Below are positions 10,853-43,482 of a DNA stretch of 43,482 bases, in pieces. Source of the DNA: Chrysochromulina tobinii (lineage: Eukaryota); the NCBI GenBank assembly GCA_001275005.1, contig JWZX01003312.1:1-43482 (forward strand), given 5' to 3'. Under the pieces are notes generated by a model. The model did not search any database. It worked only from the letters and a program-made list of their open reading frames with translations, and was not told the origin of the DNA. Numbering within the stretch: position 1 is the first letter of the stretch; each line of letters begins with the position of its first letter. Made by a program: the position numbers and the translations under genes.

Positions 10853-13110
10853 ATGCTCGTCGGCGAGCTGGGAATGCCTCTCGGCGAGCTGGGAGTGCCT
10901 CTCAGCACTTTGGTCAAAGCGCGAGTCGGCGACGTCTACAGTGGTCAAAGCACGAGTCACGGGAGTGCATGTGTAGACGTCGCCGACTGGACTAATGGGC
11001 ACGGTAAGACGTGCACAGACTACGCCTTCGCGTGCGCCGACGGCGACTTCAAGCCCGAGTTCCGCTGGCTGGCTGGAATGGAGTTCCACTCGCCCGAGAC
11101 AGCGTGCTGCGCGTGCGGTCGGCAGACGCATGGACGGTCGCGGCCGCCGCCGCCGCCGGAAGTGCCCAAAACCGTGCACGGGTACTCTTTCCACATCTCG
11201 TCGTACTGCCGCGGCGCCGACCGCGAGGTGAAGAAGCCCACGTTCGCAGATTGCGAGTCGCACTGCGCGAGCAGGAAGTGCGCGTGCGCGCACTTTGGCA
11301 ACGGCCTGTGCCGCATGGGCTACACGTACCTCGGGCTGATCCACTCCAAAGGTGACTTCAGCGCGATGGTGCGGCCCGACGCGGTGTCGGACCCGGGTGC
11401 GCTCGCGGCGCAAGCACGCGAGGAGGCTACGCCAGCGGAGACGTGCAGAAGTTCGCTCGCGCGCCGCATGCCGCCGAAGTTCTACATGTACGACGGGCCC
11501 GAGTTCCTCTGGGGCGAGCGCCTTGCTGCGTGCTACCATCGCAAGTATGGGCACGCACCGTGGGCTATGGCCAAGTTCTTCAAGAACAACACGGGCTACA
11601 CCGAGGCGGGGCCGGCGCCGCAGGAGGATCTGTCACACGCGCTCTGGCTGCACACGAGCCTCGTGCGCCACCGGCATCGCACCAAGGACCCGTCCGCCGC
11701 CATGCTGTACGTCGTTCCAGCCTTCGGCTCCCTCTCGGAGGCGACCGGTACGTGTGAAGGGAAGACTCACACCGAGCGTCTGGCGGACGCTGCGGCGACG
11801 ATGAAGCGGAGTCCGTGGCTAGCCACGGCGGCCGCGCGGCACGTCGTGTACGCGGCCGCGGACCGGTCCGACCTGTCTCCCCTCGGCGAGCTGGGCATGC
11901 TGCTCAGCAAGGCTGGCGTGATGGCCTGGTGCACGAGCCCATCGCGCTGCTTCGGGCGCTTCACGAGGCGCGTCGAAATCCCTATGCTACCGTTGCTCTC
12001 GCTCATGCACCCCAGAGTGCACCCGCGCCTCGTCGGCGAGGCATGCCCGCGGGAGCGCGATGGGAGCGCGCGAAGCGGCGTGCCGCGCCGTCACACCACC
12101 GTCTTCTTTCGGGGCTCGCATTGCGATTCGGTCGCGGCCCAGCAGGTACGCGTCAAGCTCGCCGACCTTCGCTGCATGCAGGTGCTCACCACGGCGCCCT
12201 CTTTCCACAGGTACGCGTCAAGCTCGCCGACCTTCGCGACCTAGGCGAGGGCACGACAGTGGACGTCAAGTTCACGCGCGGTGGGCCCAAGCTCAGCTCG
12301 TCGGCGCGCACCGCGCTCGGAGGGAAGGACGTGCGGATGCCGTACAACACGGACCTGTACGCCCAAGGGATGCTCCTTCGCGGCATGCAAGTGCTCACCA
12401 CGGCGCCATCTCCCCACAGGTACGCCCAAGGGATGCTCCGCGCGGACTTTTGTGTGCTGCCGAGAGGGGACGAGGCCAACCCGGGTCGACGTCTTTTGGA
12501 CGCAGTCGCTGCTGGCTGCGTGCCGATGATCATTGGGGATACGATTCGGCTGCCTCTCGCGCCGCTCATCGCGTACAAGAACTTCACCGTTCGTGTGCCC
12601 GAGTCCGAGTTCCTGCGCGACCCGCACGCGGCCGTGAACGAGGTGCTCACGACGGCGCTCACACGCTGATGACCTCTGATTGCCTCTGATTGCCACTGAT
12701 TGCCTCCCTCATTGCATGCAGGTGCTCATGACGGCGCTCCCCACGCTGATGACCTCTGATTGCCTCTGATTGCCACTGATTGCCTCCCTCATTGCATGCA
12801 GGTGCTCCGGACGGCGCTACCCCACCTCGGGGCGCTGCGCCGAGCGCTCCTCGGGGCACGCGACCAGCTGCTGCTCGGCACGGGTACCGGCCCGCTCGCG
12901 GCCAACCACACGGCAACCGCGCACGGGTCCGACCTCGCACTCCTCGCGGCGGGGCGCACTTTCTGCCCGAGGGCGCCTGCCACATTTAAGGCGTGCGGCT
13001 TCGACGGCCTCGAGCAGGTGGTCCCGCGCTCAGCACCCGCCACCAGAGGCAGTACTGCACCCCGTCCCGCACACGGCACACCACGCGCAACAATCGTAAA
13101 GTATGTGTGA
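10853..13110 (+). CDS. Exostosin / GT47 family glycosyltransferase; predicted exons 10853-12145, 12211-12356, 12420-12642, 12802-13110 (~656 aa; start uncertain)
   Basis: GT47 motifs KFYMYD, RTKDPSAAMLYVVP, VFFRG and, after splicing, YAQGMLRADFCVLPRGD...RRLLDAVAAGCVPMIIGDTIRLPL. Three GT-AG introns restore one frame. Cys-rich N-terminal modules (~10970-11310). Confidence 0.85.
12146..12210 (+). mobile_element. 65-nt intron, introner-like (27-nt copy of downstream exon start + shared 38-nt cassette)
   Basis: GTACGC...CCACAG. 12146-12172 is identical to 12211-12237. 12173-12210 is the cassette. Removal repairs the frame. Confidence 0.75.
12357..12419 (+). mobile_element. 63-nt intron, introner-like (20-nt copy of downstream exon start + shared cassette)
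   Basis: 12357-12376 is identical to 12420-12439. Cassette at 12382-12419. Removal restores the GT47 motif YAQGMLRADFC. Confidence 0.72.
12643..12801 (+). repeat. 159-nt intron made of two head-to-tail GT...AG units (79 and 80 nt) with TGATTGCC(T/A)C microrepeats
   Basis: Units 12643-12721 and 12722-12801 are nearly identical, each GTGCTCA...ATTGCATGCAG. Contains an in-frame stop; removal joins ...AVNE|VLRTALPHL. Confidence 0.85.
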
Positions 13111-17577: not shown

Positions 17578-20500
17578 TCAGATCGCGAGCATCTCGTCCT
17601 CACGACCTCTCGACTCGTCAAAGCGCGGCTGCGGCGGCAGCCCCGCCGTCGCGCGCTCTTGCGCAAGCGGCGCGGCCGTGAGGTCGGAGAAGATGGCCGC
17701 GGGGGGCGAGGCAAGCAGCCCGTGCGAGCCCGCGAGGGTGGAGGCGCGCGGCTTCATATTGGCCTCCACTTTGACCTGAGGCGCGCGCAGCCCCCGCGCA
17801 GCTGCCGGCACCGGCCCGGCGCTCGGCGAGGCGGTGGCTGGTCCCATGGCCGTGAGAGTCGCGGCCCACGAGCTCTTCGAGAGCATATCTCCGGGAGAGA
17901 GCCCGAGGAGATCGCCCTCGCGCGCTGTCTCCATCGGAGGGAAGTCCTCGAACTTCATCAGCATTGGCGACTCGGGCGGCGGCGCTGGCGGCGGCGGCGG
18001 CGCCCGTCGCTGGCTGAGCGGCGGCGACAGCAGCGAGGCTAGCGATAGCTTCTCCTCGGCCACGGGCGGCGCGGCTGCCTTGGCCTGCAAAGCAGCTGCC
18101 GCCATGCTGGACGTGGTCGGGGGCGGCGGCGGACCAGGCAGCTTCGGCACGGTCTGCTTCAGCATCGAGGCACGCCGGTGAACCGGCAGTTTCGAAGTGG
18201 CGGCGCCTGGTACAGCGGCGCTCGGCAGCAGCGACTGGCGACCTGCGAGCGACTGGCGACCGGCGAGCGACTGGCGACCGGGGTTTGGCAGCAACGACGG
18301 GCGCGGCAGCAGCGACTCGCGTACCTTTGCGGGCGGCTCCTCCGCCGGCGGCGGCGGCGGGGGCGGCGCCGGCGCCAGCGGTGGAGAAAGGAGCTCGCCG
18401 AGGGGGCTCAGCAGGCTCGAGCCCTCGACTGGGCTCCGCAGCTGTCCATAGGCGGCGGCGCTCACGGCGGCGCTCTCCATCCCGGACACGTGGCTCGCCG
18501 TCCTCAGAAGCCGCCCGGGCGTGTCGAGGAGCCGCCCGGGCGTGCTCACGACGGCGGAGACGGCATTCGAGAGCTCAAGGCGGCATGCTTCGAAGAAGCC
18601 GAACGGGGTGCGCGCCTTAGCCTTGCTATTGGGCGTCGGTTGCGGGCGCGCGTGTACCTTGCTGCTGGGCGTGGGTTTCGGCTCGGGCATGGCCTGCAGC
18701 ATCACGCCCCTTGGCTGCTGATACGGCGGCGCCTCGACCACAGGAGCCGCCTCCTTGTGCTTCGCGCCGCCGCCTTCGGCGCCGCCCTCGGCTTCACCCT
18801 CGCCGCCGTTGGCATTGGCCGCGGAGCCGAAGCCAGCAGGCGGGATGCTCACGCGAGGGGAGAGCGGCGCACGGCGTGCGGAGAAGGGCTGGCTAGACGG
18901 CGCTGTCGTGGGCGGCGGCCCTCCGTCTGTGGAAGGAGTCGTCGTCGGCTGCGCTTCGAGAGCGGCCTCCGGCGCGGGCGTCGCGGCCAGTCCCGCCGCC
19001 CACGACGGCGCCCCTGGGCTCGTGAGCGAGGCTGGGGGGGGCAGCGGGGCGAGGTCGTCCGCCCACGACGGCACCCTAGGGCTCGTCAGCGAGGCTGGGG
19101 GAGGCAGCGGGGCAAGGTCGTCGTCGTCGTCGATGTCTTTGTCAATGGCAGCAATGGCCGCCTCGGCGGCCGCCTTGGCCCGGGCCGCCGCCGCCACCTC
19201 CGCCGGCGACGCCGCCACCACCCCTCCCGTGGCCGTGAACTGCCGGCTGCCCAGCACGGCGCTGCCCAGCACGGCGCTGCCCAGCACGGCGCTGCCCGGC
19301 ACGCGCGGCGTCAGGGCCTCTCGGAGCTCACGGTCCTTGCGCATCGCCTCCTCCCGAGCAGCCAGCAGCTCGGCGTCCTTGCGCTGGGCCTCCTCCGCGA
19401 GCGACGAGAGCTCCGACTCGAACTCCATGAACAGCCCGTGCTTCTCCTCGCGCTCGGCCTGCGGGTCGGTCGGTGTCGAACGCGCAGAGCCGTCAGCGCA
19501 ATCACAGGGCCAACATAGAGGCCATCCGAGTGGCCATCAGAGGCCATCCGAGAGGCCATCAGAGAGGCCATCAGGGAGGCCATCAAGCGCACTTGTGCAC
19601 GCCGCTCCGCCTCGAGCATCTTCTCTTCCAACTCCAGCTTCTCCTGCTCCATCCTTTCCATCTTCTCGGCCATCATCACCTTCTCCTCGAGCTCGCGCAG
19701 CTCCACGCGTACCTGTGGGGAGAGGGCGCCGTGATGAGCACTTGCATGCAGCGCAGGGCACGGGCAGCTCGACGCGTACCGCGAGCAGCCGGCGCCAGCG
19801 CCCTTGCAGCCGCATCGCCGCCACCATCGCCGCCAGCTCGGCCGGCATCGCCGCGAAGTAGCCGCCAACGCGCATGCCGCTGCGCATGCCGCTGCCGCCC
19901 GTGCTGCCCGTGCCGCAGCCGCCCGCCCCCGCGTTCGTCGCGATAAGTGCAATCGTCGCGCGTGTGTGCCGGTCGTACGCCGCGCGCTCGCGCTCGCGCG
20001 TCTTGCGTCGCTCCTCGCGCAGCCGACGTGCGGACAGCCGAGCTTTGAGCCCTCGAGCGCCCGCCTCGAGCTTCGTCGCCGCGCCCGTCCGGTGCATTTG
20101 CGATGCGAGGGCACGGGCGGCCGCCTCGCGTTGCTTGACGGCTGCGTTCGTCCGTCCCTCGAGCGACGCACGCTTCATGGAGTAGTGCTTGCGAGCGAGC
20201 GCGCCGCGCACCGCCGTCTGCACCTTCACCACCGCGAGCAGACGATGGACCTGGCGTGCGCGTTCCTTGCGCGCCGCCGCCGCCGCCTCGCGCTTGCTAG
20301 CGGCCACCGCTCTGAGTGCCGAGAGGGCCTTGCGGGCGAGCGCCGCGCGCCACACGCACTGCAGGCGCACGCACGCCGCGCGCTCGGCCTTGGCTTGCCC
20401 TTTCGCCTCCCGCTGTGCCCGCGCCGCCACCAGCCGGCGCTGCTTCTCGGCCTTCTCGTCGGCCACCGCTGCGCGGCGCGTCGCCGCGACGCGACGACCG

Positions 20501-32140: not shown

Positions 32141-35100
32141 CCAATCGCAGCAGCCACGGCCGCAACGCGAGCGCTTCTGCTTCCTTCTCCATGTCGTCGC
32201 TGCCTGCGCAGCCGCCCAGCGTCGTGGATCTCTTCCTCTCGCTCAACGGACAGCAATTCACACCGCTCGGCTTCGCAGGGGAGCGGTTCACATACTACAG
32301 CGAGCCGATGATCTCTGCAATCTCGCCCTCGGGGGGTGCCATCGAGGGCGGCACGCGTGTGACACTCTCTGGCTCCTGGCCAGTCGAGACCGACGAAGAG
32401 GGCGATTCGAGGCGCCTGCTTCGCTGCCGCTTTGGGCGCGAAGTGGTGCGTGCGCAGCGCTCGGCCCACGGCGACCTCGTGTGTGAGTCGCCGCGGTTGG
32501 CTCGAGTCTTCGAGGCGGAGCTCACGAGCGTCGCCGAGCAGATGGCGCCCGACCTGCGTAATGCGTCGGTGCTGCCGCTCACGCAATGGCAGCTGGGAGA
32601 GGCGACGCGCGCCGGTAATGCATTCTACGCGCAGGACACTGCCCTCGAGCTGAACGCTGTCGCAGACCATGGTGTGGCACAGCCTCTCAGGGTCAGCTTC
32701 AACGGGCTCGACTACACCCGTTCACAGTTGCCGTTCCGATGGCTACTCCCGCCGCGCCTCGTCGATGTGCGACCCATCCTTGGCCCTGCGGACGGCGAGA
32801 CGATCGTGAGGCTGCGTGGCGAAGGGCTATGGGACGTGCCGCACTTGCAATGTCGCTTCGGTCCCATCGCTGTAGATGCGACCGTCGTCTCCGAGTGGGT
32901 TCATGCCGACGGCACGCCACAACGCCAGCTCGAGGCAACCTGTATCTCGCCTCCAATGGTGACCTTTGCCAATGCCACCTCCACGGCCACCGTCTCCGTC
33001 CCCTTTCTCGTCTCTTCGAACGCGCAGCAGTTTGTGGGCGAAGGCTTGGCGTTCACGTACTACGCCCCCACGCCGCTCAGCCAGCCGATGCGCCCGACTC
33101 TCGGCCCCCACTTGGGCGGCACGTACATTGGCCTGCCCCACGTACCCATCATCCGTGGAGCACGCTACCTGTGTCGCATCGGCGGCCCTGAGGGGCAGCT
33201 GGTGCCCGCGCAGATCGGACGTAGGGCGGGCCTGCCGAGCGCCCAGTACAGCGCCTACTTCGGAGATGCCGAGGACGACAACAGCATCGCCGCCGGCCAG
33301 GGTGCCCAGTACAGCGCCTACTTCGGAGATGCCGAGGACGACAACAGCATCGCCGCCGGCCAGGGTGGCGGCGATGCCGAGGATGCGAGGAGCGACGATG
33401 GCGTGGCCGTGCGGCCGGAGTTGATGTGCGCGATGCCCTTCGTCCCCGTCATGGCCGACGTCGGCATCGAGGTCTCCATGAACGGACAGCAGTTCGCGAC
33501 CGTCGATGCCAACTTCAGCTACCACTCCCCGATGGTCACCGCGGGCCTCGCGCCGCTGAGCGGCCCTTCCGACGGCGAGACGGACGTCCTCGTCCGCCTG
33601 GTCCACGTGTCGCTCAGCCCGCGCCAGCTGCTCGCGACGGCGCCCCAGATGCCTCCCGAGTACGTCTGCCGCTTCGAGGACACGTGGCGAGCCGCCGCGT
33701 TGGCCGAGCCGCCGCCGCTGCTCCGCGCGGATGAGCAGCTCAGTCCGAATCGAGGCGAACTCGGAACGACCATCTCACATGAGAACCGCTCGTCGCACTA
33801 TGCTCTTGAGGCTTTGCGCGCCCTCGAGTGCACGAGCGGGGGAGCCGAGAGCGACGTGGCCGCATGCGCGGCGCCCTTGGGCATGCTCACGCTACGCTGC
33901 AGCACGCCGCCCATGAGGGCCGTGCGCACCTCTGGCGTCGGCCCAGTGGTGACCGTCCCAATCGTCTCCGCCTCGGTCAACGCTCAAGACTTTGCCGAGG
34001 CGCGCAGCGCCGCGTTCCATTACTATCCGCCACCGCACGTCTCGTCCGTCCATCCGACGCTGGGGCCGCGCGCGGGGCGTACCATGCTGACCGTTCGTGG
34101 TTCCGGCTTGTACGGGCGAGGTGAGCACCACCTGTGCCGCTTCGTGATGAGGGATGATGAGCCTTCGAACCCGCTGCGCGGTGTGCCTCGTAACGCCACC
34201 GAGCGCTCGCTCGTGGCGCTCTCTCAGCAGCCTCCTCCCCTGATGGATTCGGAACCGTTCTACCCTCTGGCTGGGGCGGACGCCCTTTATGAGCCGCTGC
34301 CGCTGCTCACGCCCGCCAGTTATGATGCGCCCAGCCGCACGCTGCGCTGCGTCACCCCCGCCATCTGGCCAGCCGAGAATGCTGCCCAAACGGACGCACC
34401 GTCGATTCGGTTACGTCTCGAAGTGAGCGCCAACGGGCAGCAGTACACCTCTGATGGCGTCGAGTTCCTCATGCATGCAAGCGCCGTCCTGAGCCAATTC
34501 ACACCCTCGGGTGGACCAGCGGCCGGCGGCACGGCCATCCGCATCAACGGCTTCGGGCTGGCCAACGGCTCCGAGTACGTCTGCCGCGCGGGCGCCGCGC
34601 GCGTCCTCATGGGCGGCCGAATGGACTATGGGACGGGCCAGCTGCACTGCACCATGCCGTCGCATGCAGCATGCGAGCTCGCGGGCACTGAGATCGGCAT
34701 GAGCGCCGTCGCGGTCTCCACCAACGGGCAGCAGTTCTCGGCCGACTTTTTCTTCGAGTTTGCCGCGCCGGCCGCGGTCTCCCGCATCACGCCCGCCGCC
34801 GGCCCGCAGCTGGGCGGCATCCTCGTTCAAGTCCAAGGCGCCAACTTGCGAGCAGGCCACGCCATCTCCGGCAGTGCGCTGCCTGCGCTCTCGTGCCGCT
34901 TCGGCGAGACTTCTGTGCCGGCCACCTTTGAGAATGCGAGCGCCTCCGTGCTCTGCACCTCGCCCGCGCGCCCGCCCGGCGCGCTCGCCTTTGAGCTGAC
35001 GAGCAACGGCCAAGACTACACGCGCTCATCGATGGTGTGGGTGCAATACGTCGCGCCGAGCCTCTCCGCGCTCCAGCCGCCCGCGGGCCCGCAGCGCGGT

Positions 35101-38100
35101 GGCACGAGGCTCACGATTGCGGGCACTCATCTGCGCGTCTCCGAACTTGCGACGGACGCGCGGTACGTCTGTGGCTTTGGCTCTGGCCCGCCAATGTACG
35201 TGTGGCCTGAGCCTGCGGTCGGGATGGTACCCTCGGAAGGTGCCCTCCCCCCCAACGGCACGAATGCGACTGAGACCGTGGCAACTGGCAACGTGACGAT
35301 GCCACCGACGAACCGTACAGCTGCTGCGAACGCCACTGAGACCTCGGCACCTCCAGGCTCGCCTTCCCCTCTCGCGCCGCCGTCGATACCGCCTGGACTC
35401 CCGCCATTCCCATCACCTCCGCCCGACCGATCGCTCGCCACCGTCATCATCTTGCCCGCCGCCATGAGCATTGCCACCTACGACCCCAGCACTGGACTCC
35501 TCAGATGCCGTTCCCCCTCCATCGACCTGGCCGTGCTAGCCGCTCAATACGGCGCCAACGTTTCTTCGGGCGGCGACGCTCAGTACGACGCGAACGCGAC
35601 CAACCCCCGCTCGCTGCCGCTGCAGGTGCCGGTGCGCGTCGCACTACATGACCCACCAGACCAGCACTGGTCACCCCTCGAGGGCGCACTGCAATTCGGC
35701 TACTATGAGGACGGCGCACTCAACGTCATGAGTCCGCGCACTGGACCGGTAGCCGGCGGCACGCGGCTCGTGATCACCGGTGGGCCATTCGCACGCTACC
35801 TGAGCAGCTCCTCCCCCTCTGGAGGATCGTCTGGAGGGTCGTCGATGCCGATCGGCGCGGAGGCCTCCCTGGAGGAGGGCGACACTGAGCTGCAACGGTG
35901 CATCCTAGGCGACCCGTCCTCGGTCCATTCGCTTGCCTTCCCTCGTATTGACTCGGGCAGCCATCTCGTGTGCACCACGACGGCGCTCGCACGGAGCGCG
36001 AACGGTGCCGAGCCGCTCCTCTCATTCACAGGTGAGTCGCTCCTCTCATTCACAGGTGGGCAGGAGGACGTGGGCGCTCTCTTGGGCGGCTCGGTGACGC
36101 TCCTCGGAGGTGGTCGGCTGTGGAATGGTCTGCTCGAGCTGCCCGAGGTGCGCCCGGGTGGCCTCGTCTATGGCGGCGCGATCGTGACGCACGGCCTGCA
36201 GGCTCCGCACGCCGCCGCGTTCGACGTCACGTTCGAGGTGGCACTGCATCGACCGACAAGTCCGGAGGGCACCGCCGTGAGCGGAGGTTCAGTGGCCGGT
36301 GGCGTCTCTTTCAACTTTGGCCCCATTCCAGACGACGCGATTTTGGACGACGGTGGTTACGAGCAAGGCTTTGTGCTCACGCTGCTGCCTGCGGATGGGC
36401 TGCGCGTGCGCTCGAACGGGATCGAAGTTGGCTTCGACCCGAGCGCGCGCAGCAACGGCTGGACTCTGATGCGCGTGCGCAGCAACGGCACGCATGTGAG
36501 CGTCGCCCAGGACGGCACGTGGGTGCCCAATCTCATCGACGTCGCCGTCGCCCTCCAACCCGCCACCACCCCCGACGGCTTCGCGACGCACGAACGCTGG
36601 CGCTTCGCCTTCGGTGGGCGCCCGTCGGGGGACGTCGCGCATCAAGTGACGCATTTCCACGTGCGCAGCGTGAGCTTGCTCTCTTCTCTCACTCTACCCG
36701 TCCTCCATGCCGCCAATGGACAGCAGTTTGGTCCCTCCTCGCTCAATTTCACCTGGCTGCTGCCTCCGGTCACCTCGCACGTCTACCCGAGCAGCGGCGC
36801 CCGATACGGCGCCACGACCGTGCACGTGTACGGTGCAAACCTGGCAGGCGGTGACGACTACCGATGCCGCTTCGATGCACCCATGCTGCGCTCGCGTCCT
36901 CTCATCATGCCGGCGATCGAGGTGCCCAGCACGACGTCCTCGGGTACGTCGGTGCGCTGCGTGACGCCCGAGCTCCTCTCGACCGGATGGGTGTTGCTCA
37001 CTCTGACACTCAACGGCCAGCAGTACAGCCACACGGCCGTCAACTTCACCGTGCTCGGCAACGGCGCCGTCGGCGCCTCGGCCGCCCCCAGTCCCGCCTG
37101 GGCCAACCTCTCGTTATCCAGCTACTCGTGGGGGGCGGCGCATCTGGAGACGCTGCAGCTCTGGCCCGTGCTCGGACCGACGGACGGTCAGACCACCATA
37201 CAGGTCTTCGGTGCGGGCTTCGACGGCGGCACCGAGTTCCGCTGCCGCTTCCTCTCGCACTCTGGAGAGGTGCTCGGCACGGTCAACGCGACGCTTGAGA
37301 GCCCCTCAGCTGTCGTCGCAGCGTACCATCGTCACGTCCTGGCCTCGAATCAGACCGTGGGCCGACCGGTGCAACCCAATGCCGCCGAGGGCAGCTTGGT
37401 GACGACCTCGCCGACTGGCGGTGTGGTCGAGTCCGGCGGCTGGCTGGACGCTGGTCAAGCGCATCTGCTCACCTGCACCACTCCAGCGCACAACCAGAGC
37501 GACTTTGACAATGCAGACCCGACCGCTGCAACGCGCGTCGCCATTTCGGTCAACGGCCAGCAGTATTACTCGTCCGAATCGATGCGCTTCCGATACCACA
37601 CGCCGTCGCTCTTGCGCGTGTCCAGCCCACAAACGGGCCCAACCGACGGCGGCACGCTGCTGACCATCGCCTTCGCCAACGGCACGCTACCCCGAGCTGG
37701 AGGGCCCGTGCTGTGCAGGCTGGACGGCGTGGCGGTCGACGGCACCATCGCGGGTGCCGCCAACGAGCTCATCCGGTGCACCACTCCCGCCGAGCTGCCT
37801 CTCGTGCTCAACGAGACCTACCCGCAGCGTCTCGCGCTGTCGGGCTCGGCGCACCTCGAGCAGCCGGGATGGGCAGGGCGGCACAGCCTGCTGCACCTGA
37901 CACGCACGACGAGCTCCTACGGGCAGGAGTCCGACAGCGGCAGCGCCTTTCTGCATGCCCAGATGCTTTGGACGGCGCCGCACACCGTCGACCAGCCCCC
38001 GCCGCGGATTCCGCCGTGGCTGCGCGCGACGCTGCGACTGCGGCTGCGTGGCACCGCCTCCGAGAGCTCTTTCTCCTTCTCATACGGACAGTTGCCCGGG

Positions 38101-41100
38101 GGGGATGGAGCGGGCCGCGGCTTGGGCTTCTTCGGCATCGGCAGCGGCCTTCGCGTCAACATGATCACCAGACGAAGCGCCGCAGTTCGCAGGCCCACAA
38201 TAGTCTCCCAGCTCCTATACGTTGTCTACGACGGCACGACGCTCTACGGCCCAATCAACATCACATCGCCCCTCAATGGTGATGTGGGCCGTATTTTCGA
38301 GGTGAAGTACGACGGCAGGGGGTTGCATGTGCTCGTCAACACGCAGCAGGCCGTGAGCAACGCGTCGGTTCCCGGCTGGGCACCACGGCCTGGCTGGGGT
38401 GTGGGAATAGGCAGCTACTCTCGGTGCGAGGGTGAGGGCTTCTCTGGCATCGATGAAGCCGACGTGCTCGAATGGGATGTTGAGCGTGGCGCGAATGTGG
38501 GGCCTATTTCGACGCGACTCGAGGTGCACTGCTTCCACGGATTGCACTGATTGCACTGATTGCACCGCTTGCCTATTTCGACGCGACTCGAAGTGCGCCT
38601 CAATGGGCAGCAGCGACGGATTCCACTGATTGCACTGACAACCTCCCTAATTTGGAACGTATTCTCCCTCGTCTGACAGGTGAGCCTCAATGGGCAGCAG
38701 ATTGCGGACCACGCGCTAAGCTTTGTACGGTACCACGGCGCCCATATCTCGACCGTCTTCCCCACCTCGGGCCCCGTAGCTGGTAACTCGGAGATCACGC
38801 TCATGGGCGCCAATCTGGCGGGAGGTGATAACTACACGTGCCGCTTTGGCACAGAGGTGTCGCTCGCCGCGCTCCGGCCTGACGGGTCGGTCACGTGCTA
38901 CTCGCCGCCCAATTGCGCCGGATCGATGTTGGCGCAGGTCGCCCTCAATGCGCAGCAATACGCGCCGGGGGTCCAATACACTTATACGGGCGGCACAGCG
39001 TGCACGGGCACAGGTGGCCTGGCAACGGGCGGCGCCGCTAGCGATAAGGAGGGCACGCGTATGTACAGCCTGAGCCCGAACAGTGGCCCGCAGCTCGGTC
39101 AGACGCGGATCGTTGTGAGCGGCCAGGCCTTCAGCTTCGGCTCCGAGTACGTGTGCCAGGTCAATCGCAGCGCCACGTTCCAGCCCGCCTCGTACATAAG
39201 TGACTCCGAACTGGCGTGCTTCACTCCGTCAAGCAACCTGGGTGCGGTGAGCGTGCGCGTGTCGCTGAACGCGCAGCAGTTCGTGGGTAATGCCTCGGTC
39301 GACTTTGTTTTCCACGAGCAGCCGAGCGTCGCCTCGATCAGCCCGAGGAGCGGCGCGTCCGTGGGCGGCACCCTCGTGAACGTGAGCGGCAGCGGCTTTG
39401 CCGACGGTTCGCAGTACACTTGCGCCTTCGGCTCGTCCGTGGTGGGCGCGACGTTTGTGCCGTCGCTGGGCGTGATTTCGTGCTATGCACCAGCGGGGCT
39501 GTACGGCAGCGCGGTGGCGCTGAAAGTGTCGCTGAACGCGCAGCAGTACAGCTCGGAGGTGCACACGTTCGGGTACCACGGGGTGACGACGGTTGGGACG
39601 TACAGCCCGAGCTCTGGTCCGAGCGCGGGCGGCACGCGCGTGGTGGTGCGCGGCGCCGAGCTGTACGGCGGGAGCGACTACCGGTGTCGTTTCGGCGCGT
39701 GCGGCGCGTGCGAGGCAGCATGGAGCTGCGGCGCTTGCGTGGTGAACGCAACGTACGTGGCCGAGTCTGCGTTGGGTTTGGGCGACGACGCGATCGAGTG
39801 CGTGTCACCGTCTGGGAGCGCGGCCGGGGTCGCGTTGGAGGTGTCGCTCAACTCGCAGCAGTACACTCGTACGAACTTGAGCACGCTGGCGTTCACCTAC
39901 TACGAGGCGGCGGTGGTGTCGAGCGTGAGCCCGAGCCTGGGCCCTCGCGACGGCGCCACGCTCGTCACCATCCTGGGCAGCGGGCTGAACAGCGTGGCCA
40001 CCAACCTGAAGTGCCGCTTTGCAGTATCGGCCGGCGCGACGTCGTTCTCTTCCACGGCCGACGCGACGTACGACAGCTCAACAAACGGAATCCTTTGTCG
40101 CGCAACCTCTTCGGCCACCATTGGCTCCGCAGGGCTGCAGATCTCCTTGAACGGGCAGCAGTTCGGTCCATCGGCGCTCTCGTATCGCTATTACGCTCGG
40201 CCGCGCGTCTCGTCGCTTATGCCTGGGGCTGGGCCAATAGGAGGCAACACGACGGTGCAAGTCAGAGGCTTTGGCTTGGCCGGGGGCGACGGCGCCAGCC
40301 CGCACTACGTATGTCGCTTCGGCCTCTTGTCTGTTTCGGCGACCATGACGCTTTCAACTCCAGGTGAAGGCAAATTGACCTGCCTGTCACCCGCGAACAC
40401 TGCCTCTTCTCGTGCGCTCGAGGTGTCCATCAACGGCCAAGACTTCTCGGCCGACGGTGTCCTGTTCCGATGGGTGCCTCCGATTACTCTTGATGGTGGA
40501 AGTTCAAGCGGTACCTCCTCAAGTGGCACTTCTTCTGGTGGTATCTCCTCTGGCGGAAGCTCTGGAGGCCCCTCGCCTGGTTCAAACAGTACAGGTGTGC
40601 CGGTGCCACCAGGGTACCTCGCCCCTCCGTCGCCACCCTCCATCGACGAGGTGACCTTGCGCGAGGCCGCTTCGATCCGTAGCTTTGGGTTGTGCCCACT
40701 CTCCGGTCCGGATTTGGGTGGGACGCTCGTGCGTATCTTTGCGCCGAGCTTCCAAGGGGGCACGGACTACCGCTGCCGTTTTGGGGAGGGGCCGTCCGCG
40801 CTTGTCGAGGCGAGTTACTTTGCTCCTACTGAGATCCTTCGCTGCGTGACGAGCCCTCTGACGGCCGATGGCGCAAAGACGGTGGCCATCTCGCTCAACG
40901 CTCAAGACTTTGCGACGTACCCGGTCGCTTTCGCCGTCTTCCCACATCCACAACTCTTGACCTTTGTGCCCATGTCGGGTCCGCGTGCTGGAAACACGAG
41001 CGTGCTCATCAGCGGCTCTGACTTTCTCATCCCGGCGACGCCCACCGCGGCGCTTGTGGCGGCCGTTGCTAGCCACGGCCTCGACTTTCGTTGCCGATTC

Positions 41101-43482
41101 GGCCGCACCGCCGCGTTCCACATTGCACCGGCTACCTACTTGAACGCGAGCACGCTGCTATGCGCGTCGCCCGCGCGCGAGTGGCTCTTCGAGGAGACTG
41201 TTCTACCCATGACGGAAGACCTCTATCTCGGCTTCGACCCGGCGTTGCTAGTGCCGCTGCCGCACGTGGCGACGGGCCCGCTTGAGCTCTATGGGAACGC
41301 CTTTTGGGGGCCGACCTCCCTCGTGCTCACCCCGAGCGCACCCGGCAAGGCGGGTGGCCTGTCCATTGGGCTGCCAAACCCGGAGATGCCCATCACCTCG
41401 ATCAGGCTCCACTACCATGCTGTATTTGGAGGCGACGAGCTGCGGCTTGTAGAGGAAACACTGACCAGCAGCAACAGCAGCAGCGCTGTTGGTGCCACCG
41501 CCCTGGACGCGGTCCTTGCGCAGAATGTCACAAGCGGCGGGCGCGGGATCCACTTCTTCTACGGAGCTGGTGACCTCGAGGTCTTCGACAAGCCGCTCAG
41601 CCACGGCCTTTCACTCATCATGCACACGCGCGCGCCCGATTTGGAACACTCCACGCACAGCCGGCAGCTCTACATGCAGCACGCGACGCTTTACTACGAC
41701 GGGGCGCAGCTGTGGCAGCGGCGCATGAGCGTGCGGCTTCGTACGAACCTGCCCCGCGACCTCATCATTGAGGTGCTCAGGAGTGGGGACAGCCACGGGG
41801 TGACGGTGCGACACGGGGTGACGGTGCGATTTGATGACGAGGCACTTGTGAGCAACCTGGCCGTACCTGGCTGGCTGCCGCAGCCCAGGTGGCGCGTGGG
41901 CGCCACGGCCGCCACTGGGGAGCGCGAGGGCGACCTCCACTCGCTGCGCACGCTCTCCATCATGACGAGGCGCTTGCCGTCAGTGGTACCGGTAGCTCTC
42001 GCCATCTCAACCAACGCGCAGCAGTATACGCACGAGGTGCGCGGCTTCACGTACTTTGGCGGCAGTTACATGGAGGGCCAGGAGCGCTCGCCGCATGCGG
42101 CGCCACTCCACCTGTCGGCTGTCAGCCCATCCTCGGGGCCGATTGCGGGCGCGACCGCCCTCACGGTCACCGGCCAAAACTTCGCGGGCGGCAGCGCGTA
42201 CGTCTGCCGCGTTGGCGCGCAAGAGGTGGCTGCCGAGTTTGTGCCAGCCGCCGGCGAGGAGGCTTGGACTGGCCCCTCGGGCAGCACAGCCCACCCAGCG
42301 GGGAAAATGCTCTGCACCCTGCCCTCAACGTACGGTCCTGGGCAACGTCACGCTGCAGATCGCGCTGGTGTCCGAGCAGTACACGCCCCCCCGTCAATTT
42401 CACTTACCATGGGGAGTCGAGCATCGAGCGCCTCGTGCCAGGTAGCGGGCCCCGGCACGGCGGCACACGGGTGCAGATCAGCGGCGAGATGCTCGAGCTC
42501 GGCTCGCACTACGTGTGCGAGTTCAATGGCTCGCACGTGCCGGCTGCCCTCGCGCCGTCGACAGTGACTGAGTACTTGGACTTCACCCGTTCCAGGTCCG
42601 ACTTCCATCTGTCGCAGGCACTGCGACGGGTGGGCGCACCTCCGCACGACTGCCAACTGTATCACTCGAATGACCGCAGCCAGACTCCGAGCGCTCTACC
42701 AGCCATCGGAGAGAGTCGCGAGCAGCAGAGGGTCGGCGCGGCGCTCGAGGAGTGCCGCAACTCCCCTAATTGCGAGTCCGTCTACTACAACGAGTGCGAC
42801 GTCAGCCCGCATCCACTCTATTTGTGCAGCCGCGCCCTCGGCTTCGAGATGCGCGGACCCCCGCACAATGAGACTCACTGTGCGTTCCACAGACTCGGCT
42901 ACTACCACCGGGCCTACGGCATGCATTGCCTCGGTGCTTACTACGGCGCTTACCCAAGCGTCGAGGCGGCAGTGCAAGCATGCAGCATCGACCCAGGGTG
43001 TGGCGCCGTGTACGACCACCAGTGCGATTCCAGTGCCGGTGACGTCTACCTGTGTCCCAAGGAGACCATGTACGCATACGAGCACGAAGCCTCCCTGGCG
43101 TACACGCCGCCACACCAAGACCGATCGATGCGCGGGTCGTGCCTCTACCTGCGCCCACCCTGGCGCAGCACGCTCACGTGCACGACGCCCGCGGTCGAGA
43201 CAAACTCGACGGGTGCGGTTAGCGTGCGCGTGTCCCTGAACGCGCAGCAGTTCGTGGGCAATGCCTCGGTCGACTTTGTTTTCCACGAGCAGCCGAGCGT
43301 CGCCTCGATCAGCCCGAGGAGCGGCGCGTCCGTGGGCGGCACCCTCGTGAACGTGAGCGGCAGCGGCTTTGCCGACGGCTCGCAGTACACTTGTGCCTTC
43401 GGCTCGTCCGTGGTGGGCGCGACGTTTGTGCCGTCGCTGGGCGTGATTTCGTGCTATGCACCAGCGGGGCTGTACGGCAGCG
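27287..43482 (+). CDS. Giant IPT/TIG-repeat cell-surface protein (>5,000 aa, 3'-truncated) with EGF, FG-GAP/VCBS-like, EF-hand and lectin-like domains; predicted exons 27287-27416, 27536-30947, 31026-38523, 38680->43482 with two apparent +1 frameshifts (~42331-42335 and 42386-42392)
   Basis: Signal-like N-terminus. EGF CENDCSFHGVC..CECDIGWSGTDC after splicing. Roughly twenty repeats of P..GP..GGT.V...G...Y.CRFG...C..P...VS.NGQQF. Three GT-AG introns join the large ORFs in frame. Frame is open from 42393 to the window end. Confidence 0.88.
27441..27464 (+). repeat. (TC)12 microsatellite in intron 27417-27535
   Basis: Direct dinucleotide run. Confidence 0.9.
28501..28572 (+). repeat. CAG/CAA/CCG tract encoding polyQ/QP
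   Basis: Encodes QQQQQQQPQPQQPPPPQPQPQQQP in the IPT protein frame. Confidence 0.85.
30948..31025 (+). other. 78-nt intron whose first 22 nt copy the downstream exon start
   Basis: GTATGTGGACGAGTTGGGAGCT vs GTACGTGGACGAAATGGGAGCT at 31026 (19/22). Contains a stop; removal gives DG|YVDEMGAG. Confidence 0.85.
32104..32139 (+). repeat. (AGC)12 trinucleotide repeat encoding poly-Ser
   Basis: Perfect triplet run. Confidence 0.9.
33241..33366 (+). repeat. Exact 63-nt in-frame tandem duplication (AQYSAYFGDAEDDNSIAAGQG x2)
   Basis: 33241-33303 matches 33304-33366. Confidence 0.9.
38524..38679 (+). other. 156-nt intron containing TGATTGCAC microrepeats and an internal copy of its own exon-exon junction
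   Basis: GTGCAC...TGACAG. Removal gives STRLE|VSLNGQQ, the standard IPT end motif. 38571-38613 matches the spliced junction at 41/43. Confidence 0.85.
43211..43482 (+). repeat. Intragenic duplicate of 39240-39511 (>=272 nt, runs off window)
   Basis: Five differences counted by eye, all synonymous third-position changes. Confidence 0.92.

Follow-up and report, generated by a model that had tools for sequence, protein, structure and literature searches.

The birth of introns is still a matter of debate, and few clear footprints of the process exist. Several described systems resemble the locus reported here. In Daphnia pulex, staggered-then-staggered neointrons combine a direct repeat of exon sequence of 4–17 bases, a further event within or at that site and internal repeats, and the gains were shown by means of alleles (PMC4202315). 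In tandem genomic duplication or insertion at an AGGT protosplice site, the duplicated exon supplies the splice sites and the protein stays unchanged (PMC3443670). In intron 7 of human F7, the exon end together with the intron start is repeated in a plain tandem array; the copies of exon end and donor lie silent within the intron and the most upstream donor is used (PMC1557585). Introners take one splice site from a target duplication fixed at 3–8 bases and carry the other in the insert (10.1101/2022.06.06.494994; 10.1101/2020.10.14.339549). Class 2 templated sequence insertions are short templated patches with microhomology and no poly(A), which come from a distant source and lack a target duplication (PMC5110952). 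Finally, fungal stwintrons and complex introns are compound introns formed via donor duplication, possibly during break repair, with duplications of 4–7 bases and demonstrated two-step splicing (PMC7138796). Among the titles and abstracts of non-subscription papers searched, none dealt with an intron carrying a copy of its own spliced junction, and the Daphnia supplement may hold one.

We analysed a window consisting of the whole 43,482-nucleotide stretch of Chrysochromulina tobinii contig JWZX01003312.1 (assembly GCA_001275005.1), in which the intron at 38524–38679 contains a near-copy of its own exon-exon junction. It is a real, RNA-confirmed and unusually legible compound intron, and it appears to behave as the compound break-repair introns of Daphnia do. 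The features discussed below are collected in Table 1.

Table 1. Coordinates of the host gene, the compound intron with its parts, and the introns compared with it in the window
Feature	Coordinates	Strand	Description	Basis
Host gene	27502..42567	+		Reading frames, Pfam, single-base contig differences at 42329 and 42384
Compound intron	38524..38679	+	Spliceosomal-type, 156 bases, GT..AG, phase 0, three in-frame stops	RNA contigs
Upstream exon end	38502..38523	+	Upstream exon, final 22 bases; the left half of the copy derives from it	End set by RNA contigs
Filler A	38524..38570	+	About five degenerate 9-base units; starts with the used donor GTGCAC; two CTGAT motifs	
Internal repeat, copy 1	38537..38559	+	23 bases	22/23 match to 38616–38638
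Upstream exon end copy	38571..38592	+	21/22; ends AA, not AG	Sequence match
Downstream exon start copy	38593..38613	+	20/21; begins with donor-like GTGCGC	Sequence match
Filler B	38614..38679	+	About 2.5 of the 9-base units, branch-point-like motifs, pyrimidine tract, used acceptor	Acceptor by RNA
Internal repeat, copy 2	38616..38638	+	23 bases	22/23 match to 38537–38559
Downstream exon start	38680..38700	+	Downstream exon, initial 21 bases; the right half of the copy derives from it	RNA contigs
Intron of host gene	30948..31025	+	78 bases; starts with downstream exon copy, 19/22	RNA-confirmed
Inferred intron	12146..12210	+	Starts with downstream exon copy, 27/27, then shared 3′ module	Frame and splice signals
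Inferred intron	12357..12419	+	Starts with downstream exon copy, 20/20; shared 3′ module	Frame and splice signals
Inferred compound intron	12643..12801	+	Two tandem units of 79–80 bases; intact inner AG|GT	Frame and splice signals
Inferred intron	19713..19779	-	Starts with downstream exon copy, 15/16; shared 3′ module	Frame and splice signals

By Pfam, the product of the host gene is a very long protein with many IPT/TIG domains and with EGF-like, FG-GAP and EF-hand-like stretches. RNA and DNA contigs have one base fewer than the window at each of positions 42329 and 42384; these are likely two single-base assembly slips that shift the frame, and if they are allowed for, the gene runs on beyond 42567. 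The RNA evidence consisted of assembled contigs, from which rare forms are dropped; three lake runs with next to no matching words were left out. In the contigs of all three RNA runs mapped there, 38524–38679 was removed whole as a 156-base skip with GT..AG ends, at depths of 9.4, 6.65 and 7.12, and these contigs showed no alternative joint and no use of the donor-like GTGCGC at 38593. Among the listed pieces of a fourth RNA run, none reached the junction. The contigs of two DNA runs (X5 and X7), possibly the source of the window itself, spanned the intron without differences, which rules out a one-off assembly slip and supplies no second allele. The joint was present in RNA and absent from the DNA run, and 38524–38679, being removed from RNA as GT..AG and present in DNA, is an intron of the U2 spliceosomal type. 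The inner donor scores well by the matrix described below, and a rare form using it could be lost from contigs; nevertheless, an assembly artefact is highly improbable, and so is a regulated alternative exon or donor, since two sets of DNA contigs span the region unchanged, all three RNA runs show the 156-base skip only, and a transcript from the inner donor would carry two in-frame stops. The junction copy itself likely has no function.

The first-pass annotation, made from the letters alone, had described an internal copy of the spliced junction with two mismatches at the joint and repeats on both flanks, and all of this was borne out. The stretch 38571–38613 equals 38502–38523 joined to 38680–38700 at 41 of 43 positions, and the DNA contigs of both runs agree with it, so that the outcome named there as grounds for rejection, a copy not supported by reads, did not occur; the RNA check proposed there likewise gave one-piece splicing in the contigs of three of three runs, with the internal copy not used as an exon. 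The chance of such a junction copy is about 3e-19 per intron of 156 bases, and none of 200 shuffles came close (observed score 37, shuffled maximum 9). The two differences from the spliced junction are G to A at −1 and A to C at +4, and the probability that both lie inside the 9-base donor window by chance is 0.04. The repeat common to fillers A and B agrees at 22 of 23 bases, whereas the best match to this repeat outside the intron within the window reaches 16 of 23. Filler A has short overlaps with its flanks, TGC on the left side and GC on the right side, and the two ends of the intron share 5 bases. When filler A was tiled on filler B, the result was modest, as 30 of 7848 control tiles equalled or exceeded it. 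The CTGAT of the 9-base units resembles a branch-point motif. The intron showed no special RNA folding (z-score +1.04, with 169 of 200 shuffles folding as well). The downstream exon goes on with GATTGC, the core of the filler repeat, at 38697–38705, exactly where the internal copy ends; this overlap is not used by the observed joint.

The two mismatches had been taken to weaken the internal splice signal, a claim that the donors of the window do not support. A matrix was built from the 12 other candidate sites in the window, so that it is rough and small and scores those 12 in-sample. It gave 7.7 for the inner site, 8.0 for an exact copy and 4.4 for the donor in use. Eight of the 12 other candidate donors have C at +4 and 11 have G at +5, while the A at +5 of the used donor GTGCAC occurs in none of them. 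No weakness of the inner site was seen, and it is the donor in use that is the odd one. Selection against a cryptic site, also suggested in the first-pass annotation, was rejected, since the local matrix attributes no weakening to the +4 change. The C at +4 is common to the outer donor and the inner copy and is not found in the exon. The corresponding motif position in the repeats of the host protein is Ser, the exon state, in 15 of 23 cases and Arg in 0 of 23, and for this reason the C is considered derived. Because −1 is a synonymous position of a Glu codon, the change there could be read in either direction, as a loss in the inner copy or as a gain that strengthened the outer donor; it removes the AG that would make the inner site an acceptor.

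For comparison, 13 candidate introns were collected in the window, two of them RNA-confirmed and 11 recognized by frame and splice signals. A genome-wide search of introns for their own spliced junctions had been proposed; carried out on these 13 in place of the genome, it found a copy derived from both exons in 38524–38679 only, and none of the 12 others contains a copy of its upstream exon. Copies of the downstream exon start are common. They are present in six of the 13, at 27/27, 20/20, 18/21, 15/16, 19/22 and, in 38524–38679, 20/21, and each was reached by 0 of 200 shuffles; in the other seven, the match to the exon start was reached by 24 to 195 of 200 shuffles. Four of the six copies start at the first base of the intron. 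Thus, the inner 87 bases of the compound intron (38593–38679) are an ordinary member of a common type. A 3′ module of about 38 bases, placed behind the downstream-exon copy of 16–27 bases, is common to the inferred introns 12146–12210, 12357–12419 and 19713–19779, which belong to two genes, and a related module is present in the locus L011 (600–650). Duplications spanning a junction occur elsewhere in the window at 12641–12825 and 40–178.

Several details of these neighbours were observed in passing. Two of the three differences in the copy of 30948–31025 are synonymous in the coding frame. The shared 3′ module itself contains an inner AG|GT or AA|GT. No exon lies between the tandem units of 12643–12801, which is a candidate for two-step splicing in tiny introns. 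At 40–178, a 48-base unit covering an acceptor-like CAG|GT and the start of the next exon is present in 2.9 tandem copies. The inferred intron at 19459–19592 on the minus strand consists of 10–12 base repeats alternating TGAT and CGGAT, in a style like that of the 9-base filler, and its candidate donor is AA|GTGCGC, like the silent inner site of 38524–38679.

Taken as a whole, the anatomy is best read as the outcome of two successive short local duplications with filler, the junction copy being their by-product, a reading to which we assign a probability of about 60%. The duplications probably arose in the repair of staggered DNA breaks, for which the staggered-then-staggered introns of Daphnia are a precedent (PMC4202315) and which also draws on reviews of templated insertions (PMC7407515). 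In the first step, the first 21 bases of the downstream exon would have been duplicated around a 66-base filler carrying the 3′ splice site, producing an 87-base intron of the type common in the window, with the GTGCGC at the start of 38593–38613 as its original donor; this step may have been performed by an insertion machinery making long, variable duplications. In the second step, some 25–26 bases over the donor of the 87-base intron (exon end plus GTGC) would have been duplicated, with 43–44 bases of filler copied from the intron's own 9-base repeats and overlaps of 2–3 bases at both ends. The upstream copy would then have taken over as the functional donor, and the intron would have swallowed the old exon end and old donor, where they read like a spliced junction. 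The upstream donor would win over the inner one by position, as it does over the silent downstream donor copies of human F7, a precedent from a distant organism (PMC1557585). Such a donor-spanning duplication would survive because the added bases fall within the intron, and any transcript from the inner donor would presumably be destroyed because of its two stops. The data show the anatomy, the removal in one piece and the existence of a class of simpler introns; we infer the order of events, the repair mechanism and the positional advantage of the upstream donor. The evidence for a stepwise origin includes the inner 3′ part, which shares its anatomy with five window introns having downstream-exon copies of 16–27 bases, one of them RNA-confirmed; the shared derived C at +4; the 22/23 filler match; the short overlaps at both ends of filler A; and the junction-spanning duplications at other places in the window. 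The low score and rare +5 A of the outer donor are expected of a newer donor made from filler. Against it, the second step is without an exact local precedent, given the absence of upstream-exon copies from the 12 other candidate introns, and the outer donor may owe its C at +4 to the 9-base unit and not to descent.

The 23-base repeat can equally be read as the duplication left by a single insertion into an older 77-base intron, and we regard this single DNA-templated patch as unlikely, though the least so among the alternatives. Here, a staggered break would have duplicated the repeat, and repair would have copied the exon end plus GTGC and then jumped the intron at the 5-base overlap of its ends, or would have copied an intron-less homologue. 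The junction copy with linkers of 11 and 2 bases does lie between the 22/23 direct repeats, subtraction of 79 bases leaves an intron of the normal size of 77 bases, the shared 5 bases at the intron ends offer a place for the jump, and the C at +4 would be explained without mutation; moreover, local templated insertions from multiple sources have been described for alternative end joining (PMC7407515). This account needs three template jumps, makes an old donor of GTGCAC, the least typical of the 13 at +5, and leaves as a coincidence that the right half of the copy matches the common window intron type in length and in its GT start.

The first-pass annotation had also offered an mRNA- or cDNA-templated patch. 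This would be repair in cis, in which 43 bases of the gene's own spliced mRNA or its cDNA were patched into its own intron at a staggered break; we consider it quite improbable here. RNA-derived patches at breaks are known (PMC5110952), the copy is a precise exon-exon joint with the junction at its centre (22 + 21 bases), and it sits between 23-base direct repeats. The precise exon joint fits an RNA origin, but the inner +4 base follows the donor of the intron and not the mRNA, which makes the patch less likely. In addition, the type of duplication found in five other window introns suffices to build the joint from DNA without RNA, no poly(A) is present, and the sequence copied is a local one, unlike the distant sources of the published patches (PMC5110952).

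About as improbable as the RNA patch is a reverse order, in which an intron of 69 bases was made first by the upstream duplication, or the independent arrival, twice, of a mobile element that makes introns. Two insertions with long target duplications at a single AG|GT would temporarily have made two abutting introns with a zero-length exon, removed by two-step splicing until the inner AG was lost. In favour of such histories, the CTGAT motifs of filler A lie 36–45 bases before the inner junction, and filler A together with the exon copy amounts to 69 bases, a workable intron size; the compound intron 12643–12801 retains an intact inner AG|GT; and the 3′ module in three window introns and L011 shows that a mobile family exists. 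The fillers of 38524–38679 are not this module, and the reverse order leaves the shared C at +4 unexplained. With standard sites, two-step splicing is impossible today, since the inner AG|GT is gone.

Searches for relatives of the filler bear on the same question. An exact-match scan of metagenome collections, which possibly hold only part of this genome, recovered the shared 21-mer at 10 loci, namely the locus in the window, a high-GC locus in three copies and six unrelated low-GC loci; in the high-GC locus, tested in two copies (L003 and L005), an open frame of the opposite strand contains the motif. None of the 10 loci was another intron-like locus, which makes an independent arrival unlikely, and the viral collection gave 0 loci. 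Fillers A and B look like local copies of each other and not like two members of an abundant family. In the earlier proposal of two successive duplicating insertions, the two events stand as the best reading, whereas the repeats do not look like two arrivals. Scans for the shared 3′ module or its neighbours gave one viral-collection locus and 12 loci without the rest of the module; one scan returned 0, and there were 0 prokaryote contigs. Protein searches for an orthologue over the junction yielded one of 957 candidates, which stopped short of the junction, 0 of 3739 and 0 of 179, and two weak viral protein hits of 10–15 residues were dismissed. In these narrow metagenome and protein searches, no simpler or intron-less allele or orthologue was found, including the 87-base intermediate of the preferred two-duplication reading.

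Compared with the described systems, the intron comes closest to break-repair neointrons, as it has exon-derived direct repeats and internal repeats beyond chance. It differs from those of Daphnia in its longer repeats (21–26 bases) and in being known from one sequence state, and section 19 of that study does not describe a rebuilt exon-exon junction inside an intron (PMC4202315). Relative to the gains at protosplice sites (PMC3443670), filler separates the duplicates here and two events overlap at one junction. Relative to the F7 array (PMC1557585), there is one copy, which is interrupted by filler and continued by the start of the next exon. With introners, 38524–38679 shares the origin of one splice site in a target duplication and of the other in the insert, and the module common to three window introns is an introner-like trait. 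The duplications in the window are longer and variable, at 16–27 bases, with 21–26 bases in this intron instead of a short fixed length, and the exact-match scans (10 metagenome loci, 0 viral loci) did not reveal its fillers as a multi-copy family with many similar bodies at unrelated sites. Because neither a multi-copy body nor a short fixed duplication was found, we do not file it as an introner. Among 24 inverted pairs listed, none lies at the intron ends, where introners often have terminal inverted repeats, and an insertion of the replitron type, considered for the variable duplications (PMC10288648), was rejected in view of the lack of element ends or copies. Assignment as a class 2 templated insertion was also rejected: the donor is the junction of the host gene itself, and the copy is local and flanked by a 23-base direct repeat (PMC5110952). 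A recursive splice site or twintron fits no better. The inner junction has AA|GT, TG comes directly after the one AG in its vicinity, which ends at 38593, and in contrast to stwintrons (PMC7138796), the inner AG has been lost and removal in one piece is all that was seen.

These results suggest that this genome makes introns by duplicating 16–27 exon bases around filler, as seen in six of the 13 candidates of one window, and that 38524–38679 likely records a second round at the same site. An exon-exon junction within genomic DNA need not derive from RNA. If RNA-templated repair in cis were nonetheless true and recurred throughout the genome, introns would preserve traces of a routine route of repair from RNA to DNA in this alga, and such a route could also explain precise intron loss. 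A single locus with no second allele proves no mechanism and serves as a pointer to a genome where a survey could separate the alternatives.

Other repeats were noted within the host gene. The segments 39240–39510 and 43225–43482 form a near-identical repeat of several hundred bases, with contigs linking 43150 back to 39240, and represent either a recent internal duplication or an assembly issue. A 24-base tandem repeat at 36010–36057, which ends in CAGGT and resembles a doubled acceptor, is retained in RNA contigs and therefore exonic, and it was rejected as such an acceptor. An exact 63-base tandem duplication is located at 33241–33367, inside the reading frame of the host gene.
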